64,000 nt of DNA. Source: Coriobacteriia bacterium. Its GTDB lineage: Bacteria; Actinomycetota; Coriobacteriia; Anaerosomatales; PALSA-660. Shown here one piece after another: positions 3,787 through 40,380 of this stretch. The position numbers and the translations under genes were made by a program. The notes beneath the pieces are model-generated. The model did not search any database and was not told the origin of the DNA. It saw nothing but the letters and a program-made list of their open reading frames with translations. The stretch spans positions 1,060 through 65,059 of the forward strand of contig JANYAK010000002.1 of the NCBI GenBank assembly GCA_025361335.1. Reading direction: 5' to 3'. The stretch's first letter is position 1. Each line of letters starts with the position of its first letter.

Positions 3787-4533
3787 TCAGATGTCGATGG
3801 CGAGCAGTTCGTCCGCGAGCATGACCTCCCCATCGAAGACCGCCCGCGCGTCGTCCAGTATGGCGTCCCTCGGCGTGGTCGGCCACAGATGCGTGAGCAC
3901 GAGCTTCGACGCACCGGACTCGGCGGCCAAGCGCCCGGCCTCACCCGCGGTCATGTGGGGCGCGCGCCCGGCGTAGGCGGCGGGAAGCGTGGCTTCCGCG
4001 AGCAGGACGTGGGCCCCCTCGGCGGCGCGCAGGACGGCATCGCCGTAGCTGGTGTCCGACGTGTAGCACAGCCGCCGTCCGCCCGCCTCCGCGATGAGGG
4101 CCCAGGTCGGGCCGACGTGATCGACGGCGCACGGGGAGATCGTGAGCGGCCCGACCCGGACCGGAGACCCCGCCGCCAGCGCCGAGAAGTCGAACGCAGC
4201 GGCCAGTTCTTGGCGCCCGGCCTCCGACAGCAGACAGGCCGCTCGTTCCATGAGGCCTTCGGGGCCGTACACGCGCACCGCCGGGGCCGGCCCCTCCGGC
4301 GCGAACCGCAGCATCGCCTGCAGGGCATAGAGGTCCGCGAAGTGGTCGGGGTGCTCGTGAGTGACGAACACCGCATCCAGCGTGAGAGGGTCGGCGACGC
4401 GAGCCAGGTTGGCCAGCGTCCCGTTCCCGATGTCGAACATCACGCGGGCGCCGTCCGCCTCGAGCAGGTGGCCCGCGCAGGCACGACCCGCGTCGGCGTA
4501 CGACGCGCACGAGCCGAGCACCGTCAGCCTCAC
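3787..4533 (-). CDS. MBL-fold metallo-hydrolase
   Basis: HEHPDH (HxHxDH) zinc motif. The in-frame GTG at 4533 (VRLTVLGSCAS...) is preceded by GGAGGAAGG. The rest of the 510-aa track ORF overlaps murI and is discounted. Confidence 0.8.
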   Translation of the reverse strand: MRLTVLGSCASYADAGRACAGHLLEADGARVMFDIGNGTLANLARVADPLTLDAVFVTHEHPDHFADLYALQAMLRFAPEGPAPAVRVYGPEGLMERAACLLSEAGRQELAAAFDFSALAAGSPVRVGPLTISPCAVDHVGPTWALIAEAGGRRLCYTSDTSYGDAVLRAAEGAHVLLAEATLPAAYAGRAPHMTAGEAGRLAAESGASKLVLTHLWPTTPRDAILDDARAVFDGEVMLADELLAIDI

Positions 4534-4574
4534 GACCGCTCCTTCCTCCCCGCCGCATTGCGACGACAGCGCGC

Positions 4575-5435
4575 CTACCCGAGATCGGCGAGATCCACGT
4601 GCTCGACGCGGCCGAGGGATCGCCCCAGCACCCGCGCCCCCAGCTGCCCGAACTCGTCCGCATCCCCGGTGGTCACGAAACGGTGGACCGGGCTGGTCGT
4701 GCGTGGGGCCAGCTCCCCGCGAGCCTCGAGAGTGTCGGCGACCTCGCCGGCCGTCTCCTCCGCCGACGAGATGAGCCGCACCCCTTGCCCGACCACCTGC
4801 TGGACCGCAGGCGCGAGCAGGGGGAAGTGGGTGCAGCCCAGCACAAGGGTATCCACGCCGGTCCGCTTGAGAGGGTCGAGATACCCCCGCGCCATCTCGT
4901 AGAACGACGGTCGGATGAACACGTCGGACGCTTCCGCGAGCGTGTCCTCGAACGTCCCTGGGCCCATACGCAGGCCCGACTCCACGACGTCCACGAACTT
5001 CGGCGTCGCCACTGAGAACACGGTCACGCCGGCGTCGATAGCGCGGACCGCTTCGCTGTACGCGCCCGAGTCCACGGTGCCCGCGGTGGCGATCACGCCC
5101 ACCCGACGGTTGCGCGTCGCCTTCACGGCCGCTCTCGCGCCCGGGTCGATGACGCCTATCACCGGCACGTCGAACTCGCGCTGAGCGGCTTCGAGGCCCG
5201 CCGCCGTGCCTGTGTTGCATGCGATGACCAGCAGCTTCACCCGTCGCTTCTCGAGCCATCGACCGATCTGCAGGACGAATCCGCGCACGTCGTCCTGTGG
5301 CCGGGGGCCGTAGGGGCATCGCAGGGTGTCGCCGAAGTAGATGACGGATTCGCCGGGAAGGACGCGCATGATCTCGCCGGCCACCGTCAGCCCTCCGAGG
5401 CCCGAGTCGAATATCCCGAGAGGTAGCTGATCCAT
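4575..5435 (-). CDS. murI: Glutamate racemase
   Basis: From MDQLPLGIFDSGLGGLTV... with the two catalytic-Cys contexts IACNTG and LGCTHFPLL. 286 aa. The longer 471-aa track ORF is an upstream run-on. Confidence 0.93.
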   Translation of the reverse strand: MDQLPLGIFDSGLGGLTVAGEIMRVLPGESVIYFGDTLRCPYGPRPQDDVRGFVLQIGRWLEKRRVKLLVIACNTGTAAGLEAAQREFDVPVIGVIDPGARAAVKATRNRRVGVIATAGTVDSGAYSEAVRAIDAGVTVFSVATPKFVDVVESGLRMGPGTFEDTLAEASDVFIRPSFYEMARGYLDPLKRTGVDTLVLGCTHFPLLAPAVQQVVGQGVRLISSAEETAGEVADTLEARGELAPRTTSPVHRFVTTGDADEFGQLGARVLGRSLGRVEHVDLADLG

Positions 5436-5491: not shown

Positions 5492-6547
5492 CTAGACTCC
5501 GACCAACCGGCGCAGCTCGCCCGATATCGCGCCGATGGGCAGGACCTCGCCGACGCCGCCCAGCTCGGCGGCGGCCTTCGGCATCCCGTAGACGGTCGAG
5601 GTCTCCTCGTCCTGCCCGATGGTCGCGGCCCCGGCGTCTCGCATCTCCTTGAGGCCCTTGGCTCCGTCGTTGCCCATCCCGGTGAGGATCACGCCCACAG
5701 CGCCCGCGCCCAGGCTGCGCGCGACGGACGAGAACAGCGTGTCGGCCGACGGGAGGTACAGCTGTCCCGCGGAGGGTTCGGCGAAGCGCAGGACGTGTCC
5801 GTCGAACACCAAGTTGCGCCCCGTGGGAGCGAGATAGGCGGTCCCTCGTTGCGGTGAGGAACCGTCGGCCGCCGCGCGCACATCGATGGCGCATCCGCCC
5901 CCCAGCCAGTCCACCAGCCCCGGGATGAACCCCTCGGAGATGTGCTGCGCGATGAGGATGGGGAGCGGGAACTCCTTGGGTAGGCCGCACAGCACGGTCA
6001 TCAGGGCGGACGGTCCGCCCGTCGACGAGCCGATCGCGATGAGGGAGTAGCCCTTCCGACCGGCGGAGGGAGGAGCCGTCCCCGGCGCGACCGGTCCGGC
6101 CGGGCCGCGCTTGCGGCCAGCGATGTGCGTGATCACCTTCACCCGGGAGAGCATCTTGACCTTGCGGATGATGTCGCGGCCGGTGCGCTCCATGTCCTGC
6201 CAGTCAGCCGGCTCCGGCTTCTTCATCACCTCGAGCGCGCCGAGAGCCATCGCGTCGAAGGCGAGCCCCGTCCCGGCACCGTGGACCGATGATGAGACCA
6301 CCAGGATGGGCACGGGCGTGTAGGCCATGATGTGTTCGATGGCCTGCAGGCCGTCCATCCTGGGCATGTGGATGTCCATGGTGACGAGGTCCGGCTTGAG
6401 CCGGACGACCATGTCCGCGCCCTCTTGGCCGTCCTTGGCCTGACCCACGACCTCGATCCCGGGATCGCTCGCGAGTATGTGGGAGAGCATCTCCCGTGCG
6501 ACCAGGGAGTCGTCGACTATGACGACGCGCATGCGCCGCTCGACCAT
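5492..6547 (-). CDS. cheB: Chemotaxis response regulator protein-glutamate methylesterase CheB
   Basis: N-terminal receiver (VVIVDDS...DLVTMDIHMPRMDG) plus C-terminal methylesterase (IAIGSSTGGP, GMGNDGA). The alternative ATG at 6532 cannot be excluded. Confidence 0.92.
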   Translation of the reverse strand: MVERRMRVVIVDDSLVAREMLSHILASDPGIEVVGQAKDGQEGADMVVRLKPDLVTMDIHMPRMDGLQAIEHIMAYTPVPILVVSSSVHGAGTGLAFDAMALGALEVMKKPEPADWQDMERTGRDIIRKVKMLSRVKVITHIAGRKRGPAGPVAPGTAPPSAGRKGYSLIAIGSSTGGPSALMTVLCGLPKEFPLPILIAQHISEGFIPGLVDWLGGGCAIDVRAAADGSSPQRGTAYLAPTGRNLVFDGHVLRFAEPSAGQLYLPSADTLFSSVARSLGAGAVGVILTGMGNDGAKGLKEMRDAGAATIGQDEETSTVYGMPKAAAELGGVGEVLPIGAISGELRRLVGV

Positions 6548-6565: not shown

Positions 6566-8803
6566 CTACCTGATCAGGCGCTCGACCGTCTCGAGCAGGG
6601 TGTCCTGGTTGAACACGGACTTCGTGATGTAGCCGTCAGCGCCGGCGTCGATGCCTTCGGCCTTCTCCTCGTCGCGCTCGAGCGACGTCACGATCACGAC
6701 GGGGATCACTTTCAGCTGCGCGTCGGACTTGATGGCCCGCGTCAGCTCGAACCCCGTCATGTTGGGCATCTGGACGTCGGTGACGACGGCGTCGATCTTG
6801 AGCCCCCCCTGCCGCAGCCGGGCCAGTCCCTGCGCGCCGTCCATGGCGACCTCGACCTCGTAGCCGGCGGCCTCGAAGATCGAGCGCTCCAGCTCGCGGG
6901 TGGTGAAGGAGTCCTCGCAGATCAGCACGCGGCGCGGCCCCTCGTGCTTCTCGACCTTCATCTCACGGACGCGCATCCCGGACCGCGTCCGGGCGTTGGT
7001 CATCAGGTCGGGCACGTTGAGGATGACGACGATCTCGCCGGCCCCCAGGACCGTCACTCCCGCGACGTTCTCGATGCGCTTGAGGTGCGTGCCGAGCGTC
7101 TTGATCACGATCTGCTGTTCGCCGATGAACGAATCGACCACGAACCCCATCCGGTGGCCCGAGAAGCCCAGGATCGCGATCGGGACCTTCCCAGTCCCCT
7201 GCTGATGGGGAACCCCCAGGATGTCGCCCAAGCGCACCAGAGGCACCGTGCGGCGCTGCCGCCGGATGACCTCGTGACCCTCCACCTTGAGGATCTCGTC
7301 CGGCGTCACGCGCAGGGTCTCCTCGATGCTCGCGGTCGGTATGGCGAACACGGCGTCGCCGACGCGCAGCAGGAGTGCCCGGATGATGGCCAGCGTGAGG
7401 GGGATGGTCAGGCGGAACCTCGTCCCAGCCCCGAGCTCCGACTCCACATCGAGCGAGCCCTTGAGCTTCTCGACGACGAACTGACGCACGACGTCCATCC
7501 CCACGCCGCGGCCTGAGATCTCCGTGATGATGGGGGCCGTCGAGAAGCCTGACTCGAAGATGAGGTAGCGCGCCTCGCGATCCGAGATCGCGAGCGCCTC
7601 GTTCTCCGTGAGGTAGCCCTTCCGCACCGCCGCCGCTCGGACTCTGTCCGGGTCGATGCCCGCACCGTCGTCCGCCACCTCGATGACGATGTGGTCGCCT
7701 TCCTGCCGGGCGGCCATCCGGATGGTGCCGATGCGCGGCTTGCCCGCAGCCTCGCGTTCCTCAGGAGACTCGATGCCATGGTCGACGGCGTTGCGCATGA
7801 TGTGGATGAGCGGGTCGTTGATCTCCTCGAGCACCTTCTTGTCCAGCTCGGTGTCCGCGCCCTCGATGACCAGGTCGATCTCCTTGCGGAAGCTCTTCGC
7901 GAGATCGCGGATCGAACGCGGGAACGTGTTGAAGATCGTGGAGACCGGGAGCATGCGCAGCTGCATCCCCTGCTCCTGGAGGTCGGCGACCACGGTGGAG
8001 TCGCGCGAGGTGTCCTCGGCGTGGTCCTTGGCAAGCGTGGTGATCCCCCGCCGGAACTCGGCCAGCATGCCGTCGAGGGCGGCGACGTCGTCCATCAGCG
8101 CCGCCGTGACCGCGTCGTCACCGATCCCCAGCGTGCCGACGGCACCTTTGACGCGCCCCCACATCTTCCACGCCTCGGACAGCTCGCCCCGCAGCGCGCG
8201 GATCTCCACGACGCGCTGCTCCGCCTTGATCTGGTCGATGACGACCTCGCTGATCAGGTTGAGCAGTGAGTCGAGCTGCGCGGTCCGGACGCGGATCGTC
8301 GTCTGCTCCTTGACCTGCAGCGTGTCTTCGCGACGGGCGCGCGCGGCGCCGTCCTCCTCGGTGGGCGCGGCCTGCGCGACCGCCGTCGGAGCCTCAGCCG
8401 CGACCGGGGCCCCACTTCCGTCCGCCACCGCCCCGAGGCGGCCGAGCAACCCCGTGAGATCCGTGGTCTCGGGGATCGGCTCCCCGGCTATCTCGCACAG
8501 GTACACGATCATGTCGAGCGCTTCGAAGAACGAGTCCGACATCTCGGGCACGTACACCATCTGCCCGTCGCGCACCTTGACCATGATGTCCTCGAGGCGA
8601 TGCGCCACGTCGGATATCTCGATGAGACCCACCATGCGGGCCGAGCCTTTGAGCGTGTGCGCGTCACGGAGCATCTGATCGATGAGACCGCGATTGCCCG
8701 GATCGCCCTCCAGCGTGATGACGCCCTCATTCAGACGCTGGAGATACTCCCCAGCCTCCTCCTTGAACTTCCCTATGAACGCGCTCCGGTCGAACTCGAC
8801 CAT
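6566..8803 (-). CDS. cheA: Chemotaxis histidine kinase CheA with fused C-terminal receiver domain (CheA-REC)
   Basis: HPt (DAHTLKGSARMVG), HATPase (NAVDHGIE, DDGAGID, GRGVGMDVV), CheW-like domain, then a REC domain (VLICEDS...DAVVTDVQMPNMTG...K). Confidence 0.93.
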   Translation of the reverse strand: MVEFDRSAFIGKFKEEAGEYLQRLNEGVITLEGDPGNRGLIDQMLRDAHTLKGSARMVGLIEISDVAHRLEDIMVKVRDGQMVYVPEMSDSFFEALDMIVYLCEIAGEPIPETTDLTGLLGRLGAVADGSGAPVAAEAPTAVAQAAPTEEDGAARARREDTLQVKEQTTIRVRTAQLDSLLNLISEVVIDQIKAEQRVVEIRALRGELSEAWKMWGRVKGAVGTLGIGDDAVTAALMDDVAALDGMLAEFRRGITTLAKDHAEDTSRDSTVVADLQEQGMQLRMLPVSTIFNTFPRSIRDLAKSFRKEIDLVIEGADTELDKKVLEEINDPLIHIMRNAVDHGIESPEEREAAGKPRIGTIRMAARQEGDHIVIEVADDGAGIDPDRVRAAAVRKGYLTENEALAISDREARYLIFESGFSTAPIITEISGRGVGMDVVRQFVVEKLKGSLDVESELGAGTRFRLTIPLTLAIIRALLLRVGDAVFAIPTASIEETLRVTPDEILKVEGHEVIRRQRRTVPLVRLGDILGVPHQQGTGKVPIAILGFSGHRMGFVVDSFIGEQQIVIKTLGTHLKRIENVAGVTVLGAGEIVVILNVPDLMTNARTRSGMRVREMKVEKHEGPRRVLICEDSFTTRELERSIFEAAGYEVEVAMDGAQGLARLRQGGLKIDAVVTDVQMPNMTGFELTRAIKSDAQLKVIPVVIVTSLERDEEKAEGIDAGADGYITKSVFNQDTLLETVERLIR

Positions 8804-8845: not shown

Positions 8846-10072
8846 CTAGTCGATGATCTTGAACGCCTGACCCACCTGGCTGGAGTCGCGTGCGATCGTG
8901 GCGAGCCCCTCCGCCGAGGAAGCGACCTGCTTGCTCCCGGCGGCCGTCTGCTGGGCCACCTGGGCGACCTCCTTCATCGCCTTGACCACCTGCTCGGTGG
9001 CCGTGCGCTGCTGCTGCGTGGCGACCGAGATCTCCTTCGCGGCGACGGTGGTCTGCTCGATCATGTCGAGGATCTGCTCCAGCGAGTCTCCGGTGACGTT
9101 ACCCAGCGTCACCCCCTCGCCGACCTGCTTGAGTTCCTGCTCGGTGGAGATGACCAGGTCGTTGGCCGCCCCCTGGATCTCGGTCATGATCGTCGAGATC
9201 TCGCCCGTCGACTCCACGACCGATTCTGCCAGCTTGCGGATCTCGCTGGCGACGACCGAGAAGCCCTTGCCCGCCTCGCCGGCGCGCGCGGCCTCGATGG
9301 CGGCGTTGAGCGCCAGGATCTTCGTCTGGTCGGCGATATTGTTGATCATCGAGAGGACCTGGCCGATCTGCTGGCTTCTCTCGCCCAGCGCCAAGATCTT
9401 GTTGGCGGACGACTGGGCCCGCACCCTGATCTGCTCCATGGCCTCCAGTGTGTTGGCCACAGCGTGCTGGCCCGACTCGGCGCTGCCCAGCGTGGCCTCG
9501 GCCATCCGCACCACGTGGTCGGCGTTGTCGGCGATCTGACGGTACGTGGCCGCCAGCTCTTCCATGGTCGCCGTCGTCTCGCTGATGGAAGCCGCCTGCT
9601 CGGCCGCTCCCGACGCCTGCTGCTCGGTGGCGGCGAGGATCTCAGTGCTCGACTGCGCGAGCCGCTTGCTCGACTCCTGCGTCTGCCTGATCAGGTACAC
9701 GATGAGGTCGAGCATCTGGTTGTAGCTTGCCGCCAGCGTGCCGAACTCGTCCGTGGACTTCACGATGGCCTTGTGGCCGATCTCGCCCTGGGTGGCCAAC
9801 TGCACGCTCGCCACCACCGAGTCCAGCGGCGCGAGCATGCGCGAGCCCAGGAAGAGGAACAGCGCGAACCACCCGACGAACAGCAGGACGAACAGCGCCG
9901 AGACGAACGCTATCTCCATCTGCCAGCCCTCGTGGCCGGTGATGCTCTTGCCCATCAGGGCGAAGAACACCGCCACCTGGATCAGGTTGAGCGCGCCGAA
10001 CATCACCACGTTGGCGGCCAGGAACTTGTACAGGAAACGGTGCCGCATCTTCTGGATGAGTCGTGCAAGCAT
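8846..10072 (-). CDS. Methyl-accepting chemotaxis protein: two TM helices with a ~13-residue outer loop, HAMP, MA domain
   Basis: 408 aa. Highly conserved MCP hairpin tip [42 protein letters not shown]-like segment [23 protein letters not shown] before the ATG. Confidence 0.92.
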
Positions 10073-10095: not shown

Positions 10096-10644
10096 CTAAC
10101 CGCTCACTACCGGCGTCAGTACGCGGGCGAGATTGACGAGCGCCACAAGCTGGCCGCCCGTGTAGAACGTGCCGCTGATGAAGTCGGCTTGAGCCCGGTC
10201 CGTGGTGGCGAGCGGCGGTTCCATCTCGTCCGCCGACACGTCGACGATGTCGCCGATCGAGTCCACCATCAGGGCCGTGCAGACCGTCTGATCCTTCACG
10301 ACTATGACCGGCTGATGCTCGCCTCCGCCAGCCCGCTGGCTCTTCCCAAGATCGGCCATGAGCCGCAGGTCCACCACGGAGACGATCTCGCCGCGGATGT
10401 TGATGACTCCCAGCACGAAGTCGGGCGCTCGCGGGATGGGCGTGACCGTGTACTCGTTCTCGATCTCGCGGACGTCCTCGATGCGCACGCCGTAGGTCTC
10501 GTCGCCCAGCGCGAACAGCAGCACGCCGGTGCGCTGCTCGTCGACGCCGTCCACCTGCTCGACCGCCAGAGAATCGGCGCGCTTCCGCAGGGTCTCCAAC
10601 CGGAGTTCCTCACCGGGCGACATGGTCCCACCGGGTCCGGCCAT
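10096..10644 (-). CDS. cheW: Chemotaxis coupling protein CheW
   Basis: 182 aa. The CheW-like fold signature ([20 protein letters not shown]...[25 protein letters not shown]) is present. Confidence 0.9.
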
Positions 10645-10647
10645 CGT

Positions 10648-11268
10648 CTACGACCTCCCCGCTGTGGACAGCGAAGGCGGGATCAGGGCGTCGACGTCGA
10701 AGACGAACACCATCCCGCTCTCGAGGCTGCACACGCTCAGGAGTCGGTCGCTGAGGGCGTGCACGCTCGAAGGCGCCTGCATGCTCCCCGCTGGAACCTC
10801 GAGGACGTCTTCGACCTCGTCCACGACGAGCGCGACGATGCCCTGCGCCGTGCGCGTGAACACCATCGGCGTCTGCAACCCCTGCACGAGCGGCTCCAGC
10901 CCGACCAGCGCCCGCAGGTCGACCACGGGCACCACGCGCCCCCGGACGTTGATCACGCCCAGGATCGCCGCCGACGTGTCGGGCAGTCCGGATATCTCAA
11001 CGATCTGCTGGATCTCCTGCACCACATCGATGGGGAACGCGTAGCGCTGCCCCTCGATGGAGAAGACGACGATGCGCTCCGGGCTCCCGGGGTCGACCGA
11101 CTCCACGGGCTCCTCGATGAAGTCGTCGAGCACGATCGGGGACGCCCCGATCGCGTCCGCCGATGGGGCCTCGGCCGGGGCCGTCGAACCTGTGGAGTCG
11201 GCCGCGCGCTTGGGAGCCCGCTTCTTCGCCGGCACCGGGCTCGGCTTCGCGTCCTTGCGCGCACTCAT
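10648..11268 (-). CDS. CheW-like protein with Ala/Pro/Lys-rich N-terminal extension
   Basis: Starts MSARKDAKPSP... at an ATG forming an ATGA overlap with the upstream gene. The core VVFSIEGQRYAFPIDVVQEI...ILGVINVRGRVVPVVDLR is CheW-like. The longer track ORF start is discounted. Confidence 0.85.
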   Translation of the reverse strand: MSARKDAKPSPVPAKKRAPKRAADSTGSTAPAEAPSADAIGASPIVLDDFIEEPVESVDPGSPERIVVFSIEGQRYAFPIDVVQEIQQIVEISGLPDTSAAILGVINVRGRVVPVVDLRALVGLEPLVQGLQTPMVFTRTAQGIVALVVDEVEDVLEVPAGSMQAPSSVHALSDRLLSVCSLESGMVFVFDVDALIPPSLSTAGRS

Positions 11269-13034
11269 CGGGGAAGCCTCAGGACGCGGTCGAGCTCGTC
11301 GGCGCTCACGAGCCCCGCGGCGACCTTCGCGATGCCCGACGTCACGAGCGGCCTCATGCCCGCGGCCAGAGCGGCCTTGGTGAGGGCTTCCGCGTCCGCC
11401 CCGCGAGCGACCGCCATCCGCACGGGATCGGAGAACGGCAGGACCTCGAAGATCCCCGTGACCCCCGCGAAGCCGGACTGGCCGCAGTTCGGGCACCCGG
11501 ATCCGGACTTGCTGACAAGGCCGGCCGGCGCCCCTGGCAGGAGCGCGACAGCCGGTGACGGCTTCTCCACACCGCAGTTGGGGCAGTTGACCCGCACGAG
11601 CCGCTGCCCGATGGCCAGGGTCAGCGCCGACGAGAGCCCGTAGGGCTCGGCGCCCAGGTCGAGCAGCACCCGGACGGCGGGCACGATCCCCGCGGCCACG
11701 ACGGTCGCGATGACCAGTCGTCCCGCGGCGGCGGCCTCGACGGCGAGGGAGACTTCCTCCCCCGTAGCCAGGCCGTCGATGGCGATCACGTCGGTGTCCT
11801 GCCGGCTGCCGGCCGCCAGGTAGGCGGCGGGTCCCACGGGAGAGCCGGGACTCACCAGCACCTGAGCCACGGCCGGGATCTCGTGCTCGATGGAGCGTTC
11901 GACGGAGAACACGGTCTTGCCCACGGCCGCCGCATGGGCAAGGAGCGCGTAGTACGTCGCGCTGCGGCCCTCGGCCGCCGGAGACGCGATCAGCAGGATG
12001 CCCCTGCCGCGCTCCACCATCACGTGCAAGGCGCGTGTCTCGGCGTCCCCCAGCCCGAGCGCTTCGACGCCGCGTGGCTCGGCGCGGTGCGGCGCCAAGG
12101 AGACCACCAGACGCTGTCCCGAGATCGTGGGAACGACCGACACGACCAGCACCAGGTCCTGGCCGGCCAGATGGGCGCGCACGCGCCCGGTGGCCGGCAG
12201 GTTCGAGCCGGCCGCCCCGATCCGGACGAAGTTCTTGAAGCCGTCGACAAGCGACGACTGCAGAGACAGTGGAGCGCTGGCGACCTTCTCCAGACGCCCG
12301 CCGACCCGGTAGACGAGGAAGAAGTCGTCCTTGTACGGGAGGAGCTGGACCCGGGTGGCGCCCCGCGAGGCCGCGTCGATGAGGATATCCGTGACCAGGA
12401 GCGAGACCTTCACGGAATCGGCCACGGCGAGCACGTCGAGGTCGACCGCGGAGGCGCCCGCCGGGGTGGCCGCGGCGATCTGCTCGATGGTGCCCGCCGC
12501 CTCGTGGGCGACCGGCGCCAGCGGGATCCCGGTCTCGGGCGGGACCACGACCGCGACCGGTGCCGAGGGCACCTGCACCGGTGCGGGCCCCGACTCCGGC
12601 TCGCCGTAGTACTGCGTGATCGCCGCCAGGAGCGGCTCGGGGTCGGTGAGCACCGGGTCGAACTCCACGTGGAGCTCGGCAGCGACGTCGTCCAGGTCGA
12701 GCACGTTCATCGGATCCCCGACGGCGATCGTGACCGCGCCGTCGATCTCGAACAGGGGCAGCAGCCGACGCGATCGCGCGACCTGGGCCGGCATGAGCGC
12801 CAGCGCCTCTTCGTCCGGCGTGTACGAGGACAGATCGACGCGAGGGACTCCGAGCTCGGCCTCGAGCGCGTTGCCGACGTCCGCCGAGCTGACGAGACCC
12901 CGCTCGGTCAGAACGCGGCCGACCGACACGCCTCCGACGGCTGCTCCGCGCACGCTGGAGAGCTGCTCGGCCGTCAGGAGACCGGCGTCGACCAGCGTGT
13001 CGAGCACCCTGTCGGTGAGACTCGTCTCAGCCAC
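11265..13034 (-). CDS. GspE/PilB-family protein with MshEN/T2SSE_N-type N-terminal domain and degenerate (probably inactive) ATPase core
   Basis: 589 aa. N-terminus LVDAGLLTAEQL...GRVLTERGLVSSADVGNALEAELGVP..DL is T2SSE_N-like. At the Walker A position it has GILLIASPAAEGRS instead of G.TGSGK[ST]. The Walker B region is DTDVIAIDGLAT (no Glu) and the His-box is AGRLVIATVVAA (no His). The tetra-Cys CPNC...CPNC is retained. Confidence 0.8.
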   Translation of the reverse strand: MAETSLTDRVLDTLVDAGLLTAEQLSSVRGAAVGGVSVGRVLTERGLVSSADVGNALEAELGVPRVDLSSYTPDEEALALMPAQVARSRRLLPLFEIDGAVTIAVGDPMNVLDLDDVAAELHVEFDPVLTDPEPLLAAITQYYGEPESGPAPVQVPSAPVAVVVPPETGIPLAPVAHEAAGTIEQIAAATPAGASAVDLDVLAVADSVKVSLLVTDILIDAASRGATRVQLLPYKDDFFLVYRVGGRLEKVASAPLSLQSSLVDGFKNFVRIGAAGSNLPATGRVRAHLAGQDLVLVVSVVPTISGQRLVVSLAPHRAEPRGVEALGLGDAETRALHVMVERGRGILLIASPAAEGRSATYYALLAHAAAVGKTVFSVERSIEHEIPAVAQVLVSPGSPVGPAAYLAAGSRQDTDVIAIDGLATGEEVSLAVEAAAAGRLVIATVVAAGIVPAVRVLLDLGAEPYGLSSALTLAIGQRLVRVNCPNCGVEKPSPAVALLPGAPAGLVSKSGSGCPNCGQSGFAGVTGIFEVLPFSDPVRMAVARGADAEALTKAALAAGMRPLVTSGIAKVAAGLVSADELDRVLRLPR

Positions 13035-13046
13035 CGCGACCGTCCG

Positions 13047-13427
13047 CTATCCCTGGGCCTTGGACAGTTCCTCGGCGACGGCTTCCAGCAGTCTCTCGGG
13101 CTCGACGGGCTTGGTCAGGTACTGGTTCGCACCCGTCCTGATGCCCGTCGCCATCGCCTGTTCCTCGGTCTTGGCTGTCAGCATGATGATGGGGATGTCC
13201 TTGTAGTTCTGGTCGAACTTCAGCAGACGGCACACCCGATAGCCGTCCAGCTTCGGCAGCATGACATCGAGCAGGATGAGGTCGGGCTTCTCGGCGCGGG
13301 CGGTCTCGAGCGCGGCCGCCCCGTCGGATGCCGTGAGCACCTCGTAGCCACCCGCCAGGAGGATGGCCTTGATCATCTCGAGGATGGTCGGACTGTCATC
13401 GACAGCCAGTATCCTAGCGTTCGCCAT
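13047..13427 (-). CDS. cheY: CheY-like single-domain response regulator
   Basis: 126 aa. Contains ILAVDDSPT...DLILLDVMLPKLDG...IIMLTAK, the receiver-domain acidic pocket, phospho-Asp and Lys. Confidence 0.9.
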   Translation of the reverse strand: MANARILAVDDSPTILEMIKAILLAGGYEVLTASDGAAALETARAEKPDLILLDVMLPKLDGYRVCRLLKFDQNYKDIPIIMLTAKTEEQAMATGIRTGANQYLTKPVEPERLLEAVAEELSKAQG

Positions 13428-13457: not shown

Positions 13458-14924
13458 TTATGAGGCCCCCATCGCCTTCCGACACTCTAGCAGAGAACGT
13501 TCGCAGGTTCTGAGTATGACGTCGGCCTGCCACCCGCCCAAGAAGCGCGTCCAGGCGCCCTCTGGATCCACGTACAGCGCCCTCAGCGCGTTCTCATATC
13601 CGCGGCATGCATCCTCGTAGCGGGACTGGGACTTGTGGATGTTGGCGAGGTTGAGGTGCGCGAGCACGAACTGCGGGTCGATGTAGATGGTCTTCTTGAA
13701 CTCGGTCACCGCGCTGGCGACGTCCCCCTGGCTCTGCTGGATGACGCCCAGCAGGTACCGGGCGCCCGCGAGCAACGGGTCCTGCGCCAAGGCCGCCTGG
13801 CATTCGCTTCGGGCGCGGTCGTACTCGCCCGCGTCCGCGTGGGCGTGCGCGGCGACCAGGAGGTCCGGGAGTCGCGCGGCGTCGGCCGGAGCGGGGCTTG
13901 GTGCCGCTGCCGGGCTCGGGACCGGCGGCGTAGGGCCGCTCGCACGGCGTTCGGGCATCGCTGGGCGGTCGACCACCGCCGCCGTCCTGCGTTCGGGCGT
14001 CGGGCCCGCCGCGCGCTCCCTGGCACGACGCTCGGTCCCGGTCTCGGCCCTGCCGACCGCCACGATGCGTCGGGCGCGTCGCTTGCGGTACAGGAAGACT
14101 CCGCCGACCTCGACCGATTCGAACTGGTCGGTGATGGTCGTGAGCGTCTCCGAGTGCCCCACGAACAGGTAGCCCCCGTCGTTCAGGCTGTCGTGGAAGT
14201 TCTGGACCACACGGCGCGTCGACTCGAGCCGGAAGTAGATGGTGACGTTGCGGCAGAAGATGACATCCCAGTTGCCCAGCAGGGCGGTGGGATAGGGTTC
14301 CTTGATCAGGTTCTGGTAGGTGAAGTCGCATATGTTGCGCACGTGCGGCGCCAGCCGGTAGCCGTCGTCCGTCCGCTCGAAGTGCCGGGCGATCGTCTCG
14401 TCAGGGACGTTGGCCAGGTGACGCTGCTGATAGATCCCCGCCTTCGCCGTCGCCAGCGCCTTGGTCGAAACGTCGGTTCCCATCACCTCGCCGCGCCACC
14501 CCGCGCCCTCGAGGCCCGAGTCGAGAAAGGTCATGGCGATGGAGTACGGCTCCTCGCCCGTGGAGCAGCCCGCGGACCACATGCGCAGGGCACGGCTGTC
14601 CCCGGTCCGCTCGCTGGCGATCTCGGGCAGGATCCGCGCCCTCAGGGCCTCGAACTGACCCGGGAAACGGAAGAACGAGGTCTCGTTGATCGTGATGAGA
14701 CTCATGAGTTCGCGGAACTCCGCCTCGTCACGAGACAGGACGTCGAGGTACTGGCTCCAGCCAGGGCAGTCGAGCCGGGTCGCTCGCGTGAGAAGCGAGA
14801 TGCGCAGGGAGTCGAGCTTCGAGTCCTCCAGGTAGATCCCGGAGTGCTGCTGGATGTAGTCGCGGAACTCCCTGAACTCCGCAAGCGGGAGGTCCTTGGG
14901 GAGGCGGTCGCCGGGGGAGCTCAC
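13458..14924 (-). CDS. cheR: Chemotaxis protein methyltransferase CheR with C-terminal TPR region
   Basis: CheR SAM-binding core (TSFFR, RMWSAGCSTGEEPYSIA, DVIFCRNV.IYF) is followed by a Pro/Ala linker and TPR-like repeats (A.Y.LG.I....GD...A...F.K.I..DP.F..AH.NLA). Confidence 0.9.
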   Translation of the reverse strand: MSSPGDRLPKDLPLAEFREFRDYIQQHSGIYLEDSKLDSLRISLLTRATRLDCPGWSQYLDVLSRDEAEFRELMSLITINETSFFRFPGQFEALRARILPEIASERTGDSRALRMWSAGCSTGEEPYSIAMTFLDSGLEGAGWRGEVMGTDVSTKALATAKAGIYQQRHLANVPDETIARHFERTDDGYRLAPHVRNICDFTYQNLIKEPYPTALLGNWDVIFCRNVTIYFRLESTRRVVQNFHDSLNDGGYLFVGHSETLTTITDQFESVEVGGVFLYRKRRARRIVAVGRAETGTERRARERAAGPTPERRTAAVVDRPAMPERRASGPTPPVPSPAAAPSPAPADAARLPDLLVAAHAHADAGEYDRARSECQAALAQDPLLAGARYLLGVIQQSQGDVASAVTEFKKTIYIDPQFVLAHLNLANIHKSQSRYEDACRGYENALRALYVDPEGAWTRFLGGWQADVILRTCERSLLECRKAMGAS

Positions 14925-14931
14925 GTCGCCC

Positions 14932-15684
14932 TCAGACGCCGGCGGCGGCAGCTCCGCCGGAGCTCTCGACCCGGTCGATCAGCCCGACCGAGAACATGCC
15001 GTACAGGATCTTCGCGGTCTCGAAGTCGTTGTAGCCGGTCAGGTCGATCAGCTCGCGCACCGTGCGCCTCCCGTGCAGGTAGCACAGGAGCATCCACTCC
15101 TTCGGCTTCAGGTGGATCTCCATCGACTTGTCGCCGGGGGCCACGGCCATGGTGAACGCCGTGTCCATGCTCGGGATCTTCTCCCGGATCTTGTTCCAGA
15201 TCTCGAGGCGCCGAGCCGACTCCATGATGATGTTCTCCACGGAGACCGAGACGCCGATGTCCTCGTCGTCGCACGTCTCGTCAGCCTCGAAGCGCAGGTT
15301 GCCCTCCTCCCATCGGAAGAGGTCGAACAGCGTGTCGTTAACCTGGTCCTGGATGAAGTTCTCCAGGATCTTCGAGTCGAGGTAGCCTTCGTCGACCAGG
15401 ATCTGGCCGAGCCGGCGGCCGGCCTTCTCCTTCTTCTGGATCTTCTGGAGGCCGAGCGCCTGGCGCAGCTGCTTCTCGGACACGGCGCCCGACTTGACGA
15501 GGCGGCGGCCCAGGGACTCGCGGTTCCAGTTGCTCGAGGCGAAGAAGACGCGGCCGTTGTCGAAGCAGACCTTGCCGTTGGCGTCCGCGCGCTCGAGGTA
15601 CAGGATCCCGGACTTCCTGCCCGACGCGACAAGACGGAACATGTCCGTCAGGGAGAAGTCCTTGAGGTTGCCTTCGAGCGCCAC
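14932..15684 (-). CDS. DUF4388 (PATAN-type) domain protein carrying two MshEN-like 24-residue motifs
   Basis: 250 aa. N-terminus GNLKDFSLTDMFRLVASGRKSGILYLE...GKVCFDNGRVFFA is the DUF4388 signature. Residues 57-80 (SLGRRLVKSGAVSEKQLRQALGLQ) and 91-114 (RLGQILVDEGYLDSKILENFIQDQ) fit RLGxxLLxxGLLxxxxLxxxLxxQ. Confidence 0.75.
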   Translation of the reverse strand: MALEGNLKDFSLTDMFRLVASGRKSGILYLERADANGKVCFDNGRVFFASSNWNRESLGRRLVKSGAVSEKQLRQALGLQKIQKKEKAGRRLGQILVDEGYLDSKILENFIQDQVNDTLFDLFRWEEGNLRFEADETCDDEDIGVSVSVENIIMESARRLEIWNKIREKIPSMDTAFTMAVAPGDKSMEIHLKPKEWMLLCYLHGRRTVRELIDLTGYNDFETAKILYGMFSVGLIDRVESSGGAAAAGV

Positions 15685-15780: not shown

Positions 15781-16635
15781 TCAGAGTGCGCCGCGAGCGG
15801 CGGACAGGGCGACGCGGAGGGCCGCGTACTCGTCCGGCGTCGAGATCCCGCCGTCGTCCGCGATGAGCAGCCCGCCGGCGTGCGCGAGAATGAAGGCCCT
15901 CGTCCCGGCCAGGACCGCGCGAGGGGGACCGTGTTCGAGGTCGGCCGTGACGAGCCCGCCGAGGATCGCCAGGCCCTCGCGGCGCGCCCGCGCGTGCAGG
16001 CGCTCGAACACCTCGGCGGGCACGCCACCCGCGTGAAGGCCCGCGAAGCCCGCCGCCGCCAGCCCGCGCAGGAACACGGACGTCTCCCCGTCCGAGTGCA
16101 GGATCGCGGGCTTGCCGGCCGCCGCGCACGCGCGAGCTCCATCGCGCAGCCTCGGCATCACCTCGTCGGCCACGAAGTCGGGCGCCACCAACGGGCCCGA
16201 GGCCCCCGCGAGGTCATCGGCAATCACCACGGCGTCGGCCCGCAATCCCACGCCGAGCGCGATCGAGGCGAGCATGGCGTCGCGTGCGGCGTCGAGCGGG
16301 GCGGCCAGCGACTCGGGATCGCGAGCCGTGGCGCGCAGACCCTCGGCGATGCCGACCGAGTCGAGCGCGGGGCCGAGAACGCCCGGCGCCACCCACAGTG
16401 AGGCGATGCCCTCGATGCGCAGCAGCCCGACGAGACGACCCGCCCACGGCTCCCACGACGGCACGAACGCGAAGTCGAGGCCGACGCTCGCGAAGGAGGC
16501 GGCGAACGAGTCGGCCGGGGAGTCGCCGCGCGCGTCACGCAGGAGGCCGGGAGCGACGAAGCTGACGCCACACACCGGCGGATGCTCGAACTCGCCGCCC
16601 AGGGCGGCCAGCGTGCGCTCGATGCCGTCGTTCAC
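15781..16635 (-). CDS. Uroporphyrinogen-decarboxylase (URO-D)-like family protein, function unknown
   Basis: GTG at 16635 is preceded by GAAGGAGCGAGG. There is weak family resemblance only (ERTLAALGGE...P, DDLAG.SGPLV.P.F....V.P....G.......GKP.ILHSDG). No diagnostic motif was recognised. Confidence 0.4.
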   Translation of the reverse strand: MNDGIERTLAALGGEFEHPPVCGVSFVAPGLLRDARGDSPADSFAASFASVGLDFAFVPSWEPWAGRLVGLLRIEGIASLWVAPGVLGPALDSVGIAEGLRATARDPESLAAPLDAARDAMLASIALGVGLRADAVVIADDLAGASGPLVAPDFVADEVMPRLRDGARACAAAGKPAILHSDGETSVFLRGLAAAGFAGLHAGGVPAEVFERLHARARREGLAILGGLVTADLEHGPPRAVLAGTRAFILAHAGGLLIADDGGISTPDEYAALRVALSAARGAL

Positions 16636-16688
16636 CCTCGCTCCTTCTGTTAGCCTCCGATGCCTGAGGGTACCCTCGTGGCAGCGGC

Positions 16689-19319
16689 GTGACCACCGAG
16701 CAGCGCGGAGGCGATGTGCCACAGCAGGCGACCGAGACGGCATTCTGGGCGGACGCCGCCGACGCGATGCTCGCGCGGCTGAAGACGTCGCCGGAGGGGC
16801 TCACTTCGGCCGAGGCCGCCGCGCGGCTGACCCGCGTCGGCCCGAACCGGATCGGCCAGCACAAGCGGCCGACCGACCTCCTGCTGCTGCTGCGGCAGTT
16901 CCGCAGCCCCATCATCGTCATCCTGCTGGCGGCGGCAGCCCTGTACGCGTTCCTCGGCGATCCGGTCGACGCCGGCATCATCCTTGCGATAGTGCTCATC
17001 TCCGGGCTGCTGTCGTTCTGGCAGGAACGCGGCGCGGTCGACGCGGTCGACAAGCTCCTCGCCATCGTCGCGGTCATGGCCGTCGTCGTCCGCGACGGCG
17101 CCGAGAACCCGCTGCCGGTCGAGCGGATCGTGCCGGGCGATGTCGTCTCGCTCGCCGCCGGCGGCATGGTCCCGGCCGACTGCCTCGTGCTCTCCTCGCG
17201 CGAGCTGTTCGTGGACGAGGCCACCCTCACCGGCGAGACGTTCCCCGTGGAGAAGATCGAGGGCGTGCTGGACGCGGCGACGCCGCTCGCCTCGCGGACG
17301 AACTCGTTGTTCATGGGCACGCACGTCGTGTCCGGCACCGCGCGGGCGGTCGTGGTGCGGACGGGGGGCGCGACCGAATTCGGCAAGGTGTCCGAGCGGC
17401 TCGGAGACGCGCCCGAGGAGACCGAGTTCGAGCACGGCGTGCGGCGGTTCGGCTACCTGCTCATGGAAGTCACGATGGTGCTGGTGTTCGGCATCTTCGC
17501 GATCAACGTGTATCTGCACCGCCCGGTCATCGACTCGTTCCTGTTCTCGCTGGCTCTGGCGGTCGGGCTCACGCCGCAACTGCTGCCGGCGATCATCTCC
17601 ATCAACCTGGCGCACGGCGCGCGGCGCATGGCCGAACAGAAGGTCATCGTGAAGCGGCTGGCCTCCATCGAGGACTTCGGGTCGATGAGCGTGCTGTGCT
17701 CGGACAAGACGGGCACGCTGACCGAGGGCACCGTGAAGCTGCAGGCCGCGTACGACGTCTACGGCCACGAGTCGGACGACGTCGCGCTGTACGCCTACCT
17801 GAACTCGTATTTCGAGACCGGGTTCGCCAACCCCATCGATGTGGCCATCCGCTCCGCGCGCGTGATCGACGTCTCGGGCGTGCGGAAGTTGGATGAGGAA
17901 CCGTACGACTTCGTCCGCAAGCGCCTGACCGTGCTGGTGGAACGCGAGGGCAAGCCGTTCATGGTGACGAAGGGCGCGCTCGCCAACGTGCTCGACGTGT
18001 GCACGACGGCCCGCGACGCCCGCGGCAAGCCGGTGCGCCTGGAGACGGTGCGGCCAGACATCGACCACCTGCTCGAGACGCTGTCCCAGCAGGGATTGCG
18101 CACGCTGGGCGTGGCCGTGCGCGACGATGTCACGCAGCGGCGGATCGACAAGCGCCACGAGAGCGACATGACGTTCGTGGGCCTGCTCGCCTTCCTCGAC
18201 CCCGCCAAGCCCAGCGCGGCGGCTGCGGTGGCCGCCCTGCGCGCGACCGGCGTGGAGCTCAAGATCATCACCGGCGACAACGCCCTGGTCGCTCGCACTC
18301 TGGGGGCGCATATGGGTCTCGACGACCCGCGCATCCTGACCGGCGCCGAGCTGGAGAACATGCGCGAAAGCGCGCTGGCGAGGCGCGTGCGCGACGTGAA
18401 CATCTTCGCGGAGGTCGAGCCCAACCAGAAGGAGCGGATCATCCGGGCCCTGCGCAAGGCAGGTGCCGTGGTCGGCTACCTGGGCGACGGCATCAACGAT
18501 GCCAGCGCCCTGCACGCCGCCGACGTGGGCATCTCGGTGAACACGGCGGTGGACGTCGCCAAGGAAGCCGCCGACATCGTGTTGCTGGAACCCGGTCTGG
18601 ACGTACTGGCCCGCGGCATCGAGGACGGCCGCACGACGTTCGCCAACACGCTCAAGTACGTGTTCATGGCCACCAGCGCGAACTTCGGCAACATGTTCTC
18701 CATGGCAGGCGCGTCGCTGTTCCTGCCGTTCCTGCCGCTGCTGCCCACGCAGATCCTGCTGATGAACCTGGTCACGGACTTCCCGGAGATGACCATCGCG
18801 TCGGACCGCGTCGACTCGGAGCAGACGGCCGTCCCGCGGCGTTGGGACATCCGGTTCATACGCAACTTCATGGTCGTGTTCGGCCTGCTGTCCAGCGTGT
18901 TCGACTACCTGACGTTCGGCGCCCTGCTGTTCGTGATGCGGATCGACCAGACCACCGCGCACGGTCAGGCGCTGTTCCGCACGGGATGGTTCGTCGAGTC
19001 GGTGCTGTCGGCGTCGATGGTCGTGCTCATCATCCGGACGCGCCGGCCATTCCTGCGCAGCCGCCCGGGGAAGTGGCTGACCGTGGCAACGATGGGAGTA
19101 TGGGCGTTCACGCTCGGGCTGCCGTACTCGCCGCTGGCGCCCGTGTTCCGGTTCACACCTCTACCGCTGTCGTTCCTGGGCGTGCTCGCGCTCATCCTGG
19201 TCGCATACATGAGCTGCGCGGAGCTCGCGAAGGCGCTGTTCTATCGCGTGCATCCCGACACCCCGCCGCGCCGCCGCAGGCCCCGCCGGGCGGTCGCGCC
19301 CGCGCTCGAACGGCGGTAG
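16689..19319 (+). CDS. mgtA: Magnesium-translocating P-type ATPase
   Basis: 876 aa. P-type motifs SDKTGTLTEG, ITGDN, GDGINDA(S)AL and TGE. Overall MgtA-like topology and N-terminus (GLTSAEAAARL...GPN). Confidence 0.88.
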   Translation: MTTEQRGGDVPQQATETAFWADAADAMLARLKTSPEGLTSAEAAARLTRVGPNRIGQHKRPTDLLLLLRQFRSPIIVILLAAAALYAFLGDPVDAGIILAIVLISGLLSFWQERGAVDAVDKLLAIVAVMAVVVRDGAENPLPVERIVPGDVVSLAAGGMVPADCLVLSSRELFVDEATLTGETFPVEKIEGVLDAATPLASRTNSLFMGTHVVSGTARAVVVRTGGATEFGKVSERLGDAPEETEFEHGVRRFGYLLMEVTMVLVFGIFAINVYLHRPVIDSFLFSLALAVGLTPQLLPAIISINLAHGARRMAEQKVIVKRLASIEDFGSMSVLCSDKTGTLTEGTVKLQAAYDVYGHESDDVALYAYLNSYFETGFANPIDVAIRSARVIDVSGVRKLDEEPYDFVRKRLTVLVEREGKPFMVTKGALANVLDVCTTARDARGKPVRLETVRPDIDHLLETLSQQGLRTLGVAVRDDVTQRRIDKRHESDMTFVGLLAFLDPAKPSAAAAVAALRATGVELKIITGDNALVARTLGAHMGLDDPRILTGAELENMRESALARRVRDVNIFAEVEPNQKERIIRALRKAGAVVGYLGDGINDASALHAADVGISVNTAVDVAKEAADIVLLEPGLDVLARGIEDGRTTFANTLKYVFMATSANFGNMFSMAGASLFLPFLPLLPTQILLMNLVTDFPEMTIASDRVDSEQTAVPRRWDIRFIRNFMVVFGLLSSVFDYLTFGALLFVMRIDQTTAHGQALFRTGWFVESVLSASMVVLIIRTRRPFLRSRPGKWLTVATMGVWAFTLGLPYSPLAPVFRFTPLPLSFLGVLALILVAYMSCAELAKALFYRVHPDTPPRRRRPRRAVAPALERR

Positions 19320-30316: not shown

Positions 30317-30523
30317 GCCTCCACTTTCGTCGCGTCAGTACGCTTCCGGCCGCTTCCCGCACGGCGAATTGCCGGTTTCGCCCAGTTCTGTCTGGGGGGA
30401 CAATGGATAGTGGCGGTTGCGTGGTGTGATGGTGCCCGCCGGACGTGGTAGCCTCTCGGTGTTGTTCGCGCCGTGCGGAGGCCGAAGATGCGTGCATGTG
30501 CATCTTGCGACGACGGGAGCGCG

Positions 30524-33679: not shown

Positions 33680-34519
33680 CTACCCCTCGGCGCCGCCGAT
33701 GTAGCCGGCGTGGATGGTGTTGAACACGGTCGGGATGCCCACGAGGCAGAAGAGCGCGATCGGCATGGCGATGATCGCGAACCACGCGAGCCTCTCGCCC
33801 TTCCAGTGCCGCATGAAGCGCAGATGCAGATAGATCGCATAGATGAGCCACACGATGAGACTCCACGTCTCGATCGGGTCCCAACTCCAGTAGCGACCCC
33901 ACGACTCGTTCGCCCAGATCGCGCCTGTGGCGATCATGATCCCCCACAGCAGGAAGCCGGCGAGCACGAGACGAGCGATGAGGCCCTCGACGACCTCTTG
34001 CTCCGGCATCCGCTCCAGGCGCTTGGCCCACTTCCCGCTCGTCGATCGCTGCCTTATAACGAACACGACCGCGAAACCGAACGACGCCGCGAAGGCCGCG
34101 AAGGCCACGTTCGCGAAGGCCACATGGATGAACAGCCAGTAGCTCGCGAGAGACGCCGTTATCGGGAAGTCGGCCTTGGATGCGAGCATCGAGCCGCCAA
34201 GAAGGAGCACCGCCACCGGCATGATCCCTATGCCCGTGGCGTGGAGACGGGGGTTGCGCCATGCGGCGATCACGAAGAAGGCCACTGTGCACAGCGTGAG
34301 CGCGTTGGCGACCTCGTAGTAGCCGATGTAGGGGCCATGGCCCAGACGGGCCCATCGCACGCCCAGCGCGACGATCTGGGGCACCAGACCCAGCGCCGAG
34401 ACGAGCACCGCCCGACGTGTGAGCACCTCCCTGTTCAGGGCGACACCGAACACGAACATCCCCGTCGCGACCACATAGAACGTGAGCGCCACCCACATGA
34501 ACACGATCTCCAGAGTCAC
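33680..34519 (-). CDS. ccsA: Cytochrome c biogenesis System II haem-handling protein CcsA/ResC
   Basis: 279 aa polytopic protein with the WWD-type motif WANESWGRYWSWDPIETWS and flanking conserved His residues. Confidence 0.92.
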   Translation of the reverse strand: MTLEIVFMWVALTFYVVATGMFVFGVALNREVLTRRAVLVSALGLVPQIVALGVRWARLGHGPYIGYYEVANALTLCTVAFFVIAAWRNPRLHATGIGIMPVAVLLLGGSMLASKADFPITASLASYWLFIHVAFANVAFAAFAASFGFAVVFVIRQRSTSGKWAKRLERMPEQEVVEGLIARLVLAGFLLWGIMIATGAIWANESWGRYWSWDPIETWSLIVWLIYAIYLHLRFMRHWKGERLAWFAIIAMPIALFCLVGIPTVFNTIHAGYIGGAEG

Positions 34520-40066: not shown

Positions 40067-40148
40067 CTGGCACTCCCTCAACCGTCGCAACGTATACTTG
40101 AACAGACCCCTTTGGTAAACACCACGCCCTTCGGCGTGGACGTTCCGG

Positions 40149-40169
40149 TCGGTAGACGGCTCGGTAGAC
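40149..40169. promoter_or_regulatory. Direct repeat TCGGTAGAC-N3-TCGGTAGAC upstream of the giant cytochrome gene
   Basis: Perfect 9-bp copies at 40149-40157 and 40161-40169 (12-bp period), ~85-100 nt upstream of the start at 40066. The geometry resembles a tandem response-regulator half-site. No regulator was identified. Confidence 0.35.
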
Positions 40170-40380
40170 AGGTTGATTATCGGCTCGTGAGCGATATCTC
40201 AAGCAGGGGGTGCGGGCGGGTTTCGGACAGACGGCATTCGGCGTGACCGCCAGGGAGAGGTGGCGTCGGTCACGATTTCGGGGGGAATGCGGGTCGGGCG
40301 GCACGTGCGTCGCCACTGCGAAGAACTTGCCGGGGTGACAGTGGGGTGCGCCTACGCCCGCCGTCGCGGGGGCGAGACCG

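Follow-up and report, generated by a model that had tools for sequence, protein, structure and literature searches.

We analysed a 64,000-nucleotide stretch of contig JANYAK010000002.1 (assembly GCA_025361335.1; a Coriobacteriia bacterium of the Anaerosomatales), hereafter the window. It carries a chemosensory operon, within which lies a gene for a protein resembling the type IV pilus motor ATPase PilB. This protein, which we call pseudo-PilB, is a fixed and obligate subunit of a nine-gene chemosensory module. It is a folded, conserved member of the PilB/GspE family that, reading from its motifs, is catalytically dead. With a probability of roughly one half, we propose that pseudo-PilB may act as a nucleotide-independent, PilB-mimicking docking hub, which would couple the CheA-CheY pathway to a type IV pilus-like platform by way of a PATAN protein. 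The PATAN gene heads the operon, had been missed by the initial annotation of this DNA, and is the strongest mechanistic clue that we have.

The family membership of pseudo-PilB is evident from both domain searches and structure. Residues 207-583 match T2SSE (E = 1.2e-47) and residues 61-148 match MshEN (E = 3.3e-16) in Pfam. All catalytic motifs align in register with solved PilF/PilB structures at high posterior support (HMMER, E down to 2.8e-64), and an identical register was obtained from a MAFFT alignment of pseudo-PilB with 150 representatives. The initial annotation, made by eye, had claimed that the protein keeps a T2SSE/MshEN-type N-terminal domain, the length of a secretion ATPase and a tetracysteine site, and that each of its nucleotide-hydrolysis motifs (Walker A, Asp box, Walker B, His box) is altered; it had proposed an alignment with PilB and GspE in case the motifs were mis-registered. 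The retained features are borne out by Pfam, by the alignments to PDB structures and by the invariance of the cysteines, whilst the alterations are confirmed by the HMMER structure alignments and by MAFFT, which agree on the register. Aligned to the PilF/PilB structures, the His box reads AGRLVIATVVAAG where the canonical motor has TGHLVIATLHTND. Expressed against the shorter consensus forms, IDGLAT stands in place of the GEhRD Walker B and GRLVIATVVAA in place of the HxxxxxxxHT His box. The remaining motifs are listed in Table 1. The AlphaFold model, for which 45 sequences were used, is confident (mean pLDDT 87.8) except at residues 148-181, where there is a disordered linker, and superposes on the PilF/PilB/GspE cores with target-normalised TM-scores of 0.80-0.84 (Foldseek). 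Sequence identity to PilB, PilF and GspE is 27-33%, and pseudo-PilB scores below the equivalog cut-offs for both PilB (251.5 bits versus 675.65; TIGR02538) and GspE (239.3 bits versus 630.25; TIGR02533).

The substitutions are shared throughout the family. A homologue search of 5.8 billion proteins returned 434 matches at E <= 1e-10, and the motif counts given here for the family refer to the best 120 of these 434, which are 53-72% identical to the query and come mostly from Coriobacteriia and Actinomycetota metagenome-assembled genomes (MAGs). All 120 carry the same substituted motifs together with the four cysteines. The family Walker A is APVAxG[R/A/S]S, with lysine in 0/120, and the Walker B is DTDV.A[I/V]D[G/S][L/M], with glutamate in 0/120; the Asp box is VE[R/Q]S[I/V][E/D] and the His box G[K/R]LVIATF.A.D. 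Around the former active site, conservation exceeds 90% over entire stretches. Across loci the median identity of pseudo-PilB is 56%, that of CheR 54%, of the two CheWs 48%, of PATAN 79% and of CheY 90%. CheY is the most conserved protein of the module (48-79% for the others), and so extreme a conservation suggests that it has several binding partners. In over 100 loci the reading frame of pseudo-PilB is uninterrupted. Shared substitutions in this many loci, at a level of conservation like that of CheR, point to a conserved pseudo-enzyme and not to a decaying gene. The catalytic residues are gone and the fold and sequence are under selection, as expected of a pseudo-enzyme whose inactivity is read from its motifs.

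The genomic context is just as constant. We sampled one genome per GTDB species, giving 51 loci, and a further 80 metagenome loci; counts are pooled without de-duplication between the two collections. Six loci (L089, L098, L134, L136, L137 and L138) that had come in through peptide patterns or tblastn confirmation contain PilB-like genes without the surrounding module and were set aside. The 51 species-level loci share one gene order without exception; they derive from MAGs labelled Coriobacteriia, Anaerosomatales or 'Actinobacteria', with Coriobacteriaceae bacterium EMTCatB1 and a chromosome of 2.67 Mb among the records. CheY lies directly upstream of pseudo-PilB in 107/108 loci with room for it, the single miss being a partial BLAST match. 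Downstream, the first gene is CheW wherever a locus has room for it, and 96/101 satisfy a strict distance rule. The complete nine-gene order is found in 49/52 loci; the three exceptions are technical, two having an extra CheY-like match further upstream and the third a fused CheW-CheW. A search for orthologues embedded in che operons, as the initial annotation had suggested, therefore finds them in more than 100 loci and in 51 species-level genomes. The public annotation of the family members is PilB, GspE or TadA.

In the window, the operon runs on the minus strand in the order PATAN - CheR(TPR) - CheY - pseudo-PilB - CheW - CheW - MCP - CheA(REC) - CheB, where MCP denotes the methyl-accepting chemotaxis protein and REC a receiver domain, with gaps of -4 to 42 nt between genes (Table 1). 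The position of pseudo-PilB between cheY and cheW and its ATGA overlap with the latter, both reported previously from the sequence, agree with the coordinates: the ATG of CheW 1 occupies 11268-11266 and the TGA of pseudo-PilB 11267-11265. This overlap is not universal among orthologues, being 4 nt in L001 and replaced by gaps of 10-37 nt in L002, L055 and L057. The only MCP of the operon has no ligand-binding domain, and thus the stimulus must be sensed in the membrane, in the cytoplasm or by way of a partner protein.

Table 1. Features of the chemosensory operon and of pseudo-PilB, in window coordinates.
Feature	Position	Strand	Remarks
PATAN/DUF4388 protein, first gene of the operon	14932..15684	-	250 aa, without receiver domain; Pfam DUF4388 E = 7.9e-33
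MshE-type c-di-GMP-binding motif in the PATAN helical insertion, residues 58-114	15343..15513	-	NF053729 44.1 bits, cut-off 38
CheR methyltransferase with C-terminal TPR region	13458..14924	-	domain search
CheY, single domain, phospho-acceptor residues present	13047..13427	-	directly upstream of pseudo-PilB
Pseudo-PilB, PilB/GspE fold with degenerate ATPase motifs	11265..13034	-	589 aa, GTG start
N-terminal four-helix region of pseudo-PilB, residues 1-60	12855..13034	-	homologous to the MshEN c-di-GMP site, key residues replaced
Walker A remnant SPAAEGRS, residues 351-358	11961..11984	-	no Lys; canonical GPTGSGK[ST]
Asp-box remnant ERSIE, residues 379-383	11886..11900	-	canonical EDPVE
Walker B remnant DTDVIAIDGLAT, residues 413-424	11763..11798	-	canonical DPDIIMVGEIRD; catalytic Glu replaced by Gly
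His-box remnant AGRLVIATVVAA, residues 437-448	11691..11726	-	both His gone
Tetracysteine zinc site CPNC...CPNC, C484/C487/C514/C517	11484..11585	-	kept, invariant in the family
CheW 1, Lys/Ala/Pro-rich N-terminal extension of ~60 aa	10648..11268	-	directly downstream of pseudo-PilB
CheW 2	10096..10644	-	
MCP: two transmembrane helices, ~10-aa loop, HAMP, signalling domain	8846..10072	-	no periplasmic sensor domain
Hybrid CheA: Hpt, dimerisation, HATPase, CheW-like, REC	6566..8803	-	
CheB methylesterase: REC and CheB_methylest	5492..6547	-	

The initial annotation had raised the possibility that pseudo-PilB is a receptor for a nucleotide second messenger, and this was not upheld. The MshEN motif that binds cyclic di-GMP (c-di-GMP) consists of two tandem 24-residue units of the form RLGxx(L/V/I)(L/V/I)xxG(L/V/I)(L/V/I)xxxxLxxxLxxQ (PMC5013675). 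The N-terminal 60 residues of pseudo-PilB can be aligned residue by residue to the c-di-GMP site of MshE. However, the family has replaced G11 by L (118/120), Q32 by A (100/120) and Q61 by E (116/120), whilst R38 is variable. None of the 120 family members fits even a relaxed MshEN motif, and pseudo-PilB fails the NF053729 model (21.4 bits versus a cut-off of 38). It is instead the PATAN neighbour that passes this model, and the second half of its motif, RLGQILVDEGYL....L...IQ.Q, is kept in 44/48 orthologues, distant ones included. At the distant locus L057 both PATAN (41.6 bits) and pseudo-PilB (41.3 bits) exceed the cut-off. Therefore, the c-di-GMP site looks ancestral in pseudo-PilB, and appears to have been lost in the Coriobacteriia clade and kept in PATAN. 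We found no paper linking PATAN insertions to c-di-GMP binding in the literature searched.

Moreover, distant relatives preserve what appear to be earlier stages of this degeneration. An HMMER search of 1.84 billion cluster representatives showed a sharp step, from about 15 family representatives through a few intermediates to thousands of canonical PilB/GspE proteins of about 30% identity with intact GPTGSGKT, EDPxE, GEIRD and HTND. The intermediates share the N-domain motifs LPLFEIEG and DLxxLAVAD with the family. Relatives at about 30% identity, from DNA with a GC content of 0.33-0.41, carry the same che module. That of P0136 (GC 0.33, locus L055) reads PATAN - small Ras-like GTPase - CheR - CheY - pseudo-PilB - CheW - CheW - MCP-like start, at which point the contig ends. 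P0138 (GC 0.36, locus L057) has the same order, which continues onward to MCP - CheA-REC - CheB, with a 170-aa gene in the place of the GTPase. A homologue search from P0136 returned nearly exclusively canonical PilBs at about 30% identity, which suggests that its lineage is rare in databases. A third clade comprises about 20 clusters with a GC content of about 0.4-0.58, one member of which is annotated as 'Actinobacteria bacterium'.

To place these proteins we computed a neighbour-joining tree of 66 taxa (558 columns, 200 bootstraps), in which the comparison set comprised 44 PilB-like representatives of canonical type and 7 other, degenerate ones, and the frameshifted P0146 was counted as a family member and not as canonical. 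The che-linked proteins group together as a single clade with 200/200 bootstrap support. Other degenerate PilB-like sequences stay outside it, a point against simple long-branch attraction as the cause. Within the che-linked clade no member has retained the Asp box or either His-box histidine. The third clade keeps G[A/S]PxxSGK[T/S] and the Walker B 'DE', P0135 and P0138 keep the Walker A lysine, and in the Coriobacteriia clade the Walker A lysine, the Walker B glutamate and the N-terminal c-di-GMP site are lost as well. Given the monophyly of the che-linked proteins, degeneration is graded within one old lineage, and its catalytic motifs were lost stepwise.

Several features of these distant loci were seen in passing. 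The gene between PATAN and cheR is about 170 aa long at both L055 (7529-8044) and L057 (7526-8038). At L055 its product has weak Pfam matches to Arf, Roc and Ras and scores 30 bits against TIGR00231, below the cut-off; at L057 it has no Pfam match, and a GTPase nature is suggested by position only. This extra gene is absent from the Coriobacteriia version of the operon and recalls the linkage between MglA and PATAN in polarity systems. In the third clade a fused CheW-CheW of 313 aa with two CheW domains occurs at L139 (11699-12640), L140 (7634-8575) and L113 (7520-8461), and a gene with a PocR sensory domain follows cheB. At L113 (5871-7516) the pseudo-PilB frame is split into 388 aa and 148 aa. 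The representatives P0146 and P0148 likewise look frameshifted, and either an assembly error or real inactivation could account for this.

We sought genes for a machine on which such a protein could act. A domain scan of about 55 open reading frames (ORFs) of the window found no pilC, pilM-Q, pilT or gspF-type domains, in agreement with the earlier claim that pilus and secretion platform genes are missing from it, and no gsp genes are present in the window. Neither the window nor up to 10 kb around the operon in 58 related loci contains a second PilB-like gene. An origin of pseudo-PilB as a recent duplicate of a host PilB was considered and is unsupported, the closest canonical PilB (P0142) being from a Bacillota MAG. 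According to their description, the two cultured Anaerosomatales are non-motile rods that bear many pili-like appendages, which one of them produces only on ferrihydrite; flagella are unmentioned (PMC9686372). No inventory of genes is given in the papers on OPB41 isolates and on EMTCatB1.

Compared with known systems, pseudo-PilB has the domain order of PilB, PilF and GspE (helical bundle, N1/MshEN, linker, N2 and C-terminal ATPase), the same fold and the zinc site. It differs from PilB and GspE in being without the Walker A lysine, the Asp box, the Walker B glutamate and both histidines, and in scoring less than 40% of their equivalog cut-offs. Moreover, it never adjoins pilC, pilM or pilT, is always found in a che operon and falls in a separate clade. 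Given the failed catalytic motifs, the equivalog scores and the want of pilus linkage, it should not be filed as PilB, GspE or TadA. At the level of the operon, the closest resemblance is shared between several systems. The cyanobacterial Tax/Pix loci are also headed by a PATAN gene, with CheY, CheW, MCP and a hybrid CheA, and share the pairing of PATAN with PilB. In contrast to Tax/Pix, here PATAN lacks the REC of PatA-type regulators, a PilB-type partner that looks dead lies inside the operon, CheR, CheB and a further CheW belong to the operon, and the hosts are Coriobacteria-type Actinomycetota. The CheR-TPR, two CheWs, CheA-REC and CheB are reminiscent of Wsp and Pil-Chp. Wsp-type, or alternative cellular function (ACF), systems and Pil-Chp systems control surface behaviour and not flagella. 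However, there is no GGDEF gene (WspR-type REC-GGDEF) in the operon or its flanks, the multi-Hpt ChpA and the PilG/PilH pair of the Pseudomonas Chp system are absent, and PATAN and pseudo-PilB are components additional to both Wsp and Chp. DifA, like the MCP of this operon, has no real periplasmic domain. In Myxococcus xanthus, signalling from PilB to the Dif chemosensory pathway does not depend on hydrolysis, the nucleotide-free form being active and acting upstream of Dif (PMC5544727). There one active PilB does both jobs, whereas here a dedicated and apparently dead paralogue sits inside the che operon. Lastly, archaeal CheF and ArlCDE offer a likeness in concept only, as dedicated adaptors that connect phosphorylated CheY (CheY~P) with a machine for type IV filaments (PMC7534055); the proteins are unrelated, and the adaptor here derives from the motor ATPase itself.

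How might such a protein work? Pseudo-PilB retains the parts with which a PilB would contact other proteins, namely the N1/MshEN-type domain, the N2 and C-terminal domains and the zinc site, and is predicted to have no ATP turnover. With the contact parts kept and turnover gone, it may act as a permanently 'nucleotide-free' mimic of PilB. In Synechocystis, a PATAN domain on its own binds the N-terminal portion of PilB1 as well as PilC's N-terminal domain; PATAN is the output domain of type IV pilus (Tfp)-type chemosensory systems, and PATAN and GspE_N domains co-occur in single proteins (bioRxiv 10.1101/2021.06.11.447907). PATAN genes are, furthermore, frequently linked to those of the MglA/MglB polarity GTPases (PMC4316618). 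By analogy, the hub would bind the receiver-less PATAN protein of its own operon, whose helical insertion probably senses c-di-GMP, and would be governed, through the hybrid CheA, by CheY~P. It could then either sequester and release the PATAN regulator or take the docking site of the motor on a pilus-type platform. The most likely direction would be that of output, from CheY~P through the hub to the machine.

Several points weigh against this proposal. The loss of ATPase activity in pseudo-PilB is read from its motifs, and the contacts assigned to the hub are taken from published families, amongst which the precedent for PATAN-PilB binding comes only from a cyanobacterium with an active PilB. 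At no locus examined is there a pilus gene within 10 kb of the operon, nor is there one in the window. The residues that replaced those of the pocket are highly conserved, and another ligand could bind there. Moreover, signalling might run in the direction of input and not of output. As an input device, pseudo-PilB would dock on a PilM/PilC-type platform and report the state of the machine to the array of sensor-less MCP and CheW. An MCP with a ~10-residue loop between its two transmembrane helices and no ligand-binding domain needs cytoplasmic or membrane-proximal input, pseudo-PilB and CheW 1 are tightly coupled through their ATGA overlap, and the Myxococcus precedent places nucleotide-free PilB upstream of Dif (PMC5544727). 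Yet that overlap is not conserved among orthologues, the gene directly follows cheY and its PATAN partner belongs to a known output domain, and thus we regard an input role as unlikely. The missing pilus genes, which are unlinked to the operon at every locus, would be explained if the module had nothing to do with a pilus and was a Wsp-type ACF system controlling, for example, matrix, surface attachment or extracellular electron-transfer structures. The resemblance of its CheR-TPR, two CheWs, CheA-REC and CheB to Wsp-type systems is consistent with this, as are hosts that are iron- or sulfur-respiring, non-swimming rods and the multihaem cytochrome genes in the window. A pilus-independent role is nonetheless distinctly doubtful: PATAN, the PilB-like protein and the GTPase of the basal lineage are all tied to type IV pilus polarity wherever studied, and the operon encodes no REC-GGDEF or other obvious alternative output.

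The conservation of the substituted pocket residues also bears on whether pseudo-PilB is a ligand-gated switch, in which the remodelled pocket or the N-terminal bundle binds ATP without hydrolysis, c-di-GMP or another ligand. Basal relatives keep GK[ST] and the Walker B glutamate, and one of them (L057) passes the c-di-GMP motif model. In the Coriobacteriia clade, however, the position of the Walker A lysine varies between R, A and S, the N-terminal bundle fails both the relaxed motif (0/120) and NF053729 (21.4 bits), and the intact c-di-GMP motif sits in PATAN; a receptor function for pseudo-PilB itself is therefore improbable. A further interpretation, that of a conventional motor-ATPase paralogue with its pilus or secretion genes located beyond the window, or of a decaying pseudogene, agrees with the PilB-like length and domain order and with the public annotations as PilB, GspE and TadA. 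The data contradict it, and we consider it highly improbable: all four catalytic motifs are lost and their losses conserved, the frame stays open in more than 100 loci and the protein is about as conserved as CheR, the context is always chemosensory and never pilus-related, and the clade is separate from canonical PilB with scores below the equivalog cut-offs. The view of the initial annotation that this is a signalling or scaffold pseudo-enzyme hence stands at the level of sequence, given the conserved dead motifs, the fixed che operon and the sub-cut-off scores, whilst the part concerning a second-messenger receptor falls.

Returning to the docking hub, we can also entertain a bolder form of it, which we think rather unlikely. 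Pseudo-PilB might represent a new class of chemosensory accessory protein, a motor-derived, nucleotide-independent hexameric hub on which CheY~P and a c-di-GMP-sensing PATAN converge and which itself serves as the output device of the pathway. Its relatives, competent for ATP and c-di-GMP in basal lineages and fully dead in Coriobacteriia, would then record the stepwise conversion of a motor into a scaffold, perhaps in organisms that no longer drive a pilus with it.

The window has a GC content of about 0.68 and is nearest to uncultured Coriobacteriia with affinity to Anaerosomatales/OPB41. The rest of it encodes trigger factor, RNase PH, SecA, RF2, FtsEX, SmpB, RNase R, cytochrome c maturation proteins and multihaem cytochromes. 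The multihaem cytochrome and cytochrome c maturation genes (ResB, CcsA-type) lie at 30452-31993, 33680-36348 and 36761-40198; the cytochromes have Cytochrome_C7/c3 domains, one of them within a protein of 1145 aa that also carries DUF5648. These genes fit reports that Anaerosomatales live by respiring metals and sulfur. Upstream of the PATAN gene, at 15781-19319, are a URO-D-like gene and a divergently oriented P-type cation ATPase, which recur in this position among L001, L005, L040, L073, L105 and L120; at the distant locus L113 a P-type ATPase is also found upstream of the PATAN gene. This synteny may be coincidental. An apparent 'fused racemase-MBL' ORF at 3787-5319 was discarded as an artefact of ORF extension, with the racemase in a different frame.

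We found no description of a PilB-like pseudo-ATPase in che operons in the literature searched, including a 2024 review of PilB cofactors, although this does not prove its absence. We rate the operon as a variant on two known themes, PilB-family proteins and Tfp/PATAN chemosensory systems, and as a variant that is itself seemingly undescribed. Communication between chemosensory systems and the type IV pilus motor is poorly understood beyond a few model species. A motor look-alike beside CheY and PATAN points to a chain of contacts from CheY~P to a PilB-type N-terminal domain and on to PATAN or the platform. Moreover, the family offers a natural series for the change from ATPase to pseudo-enzyme, as Walker A, the Walker B glutamate and the c-di-GMP site survive in basal members and are all lost from the Coriobacteriia clade. 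Lastly, hundreds of Coriobacteriia MAG proteins labelled 'PilB', 'GspE' or 'TadA' are probably not motors, and any pilus or secretion capacity inferred from such labels would be wrong.

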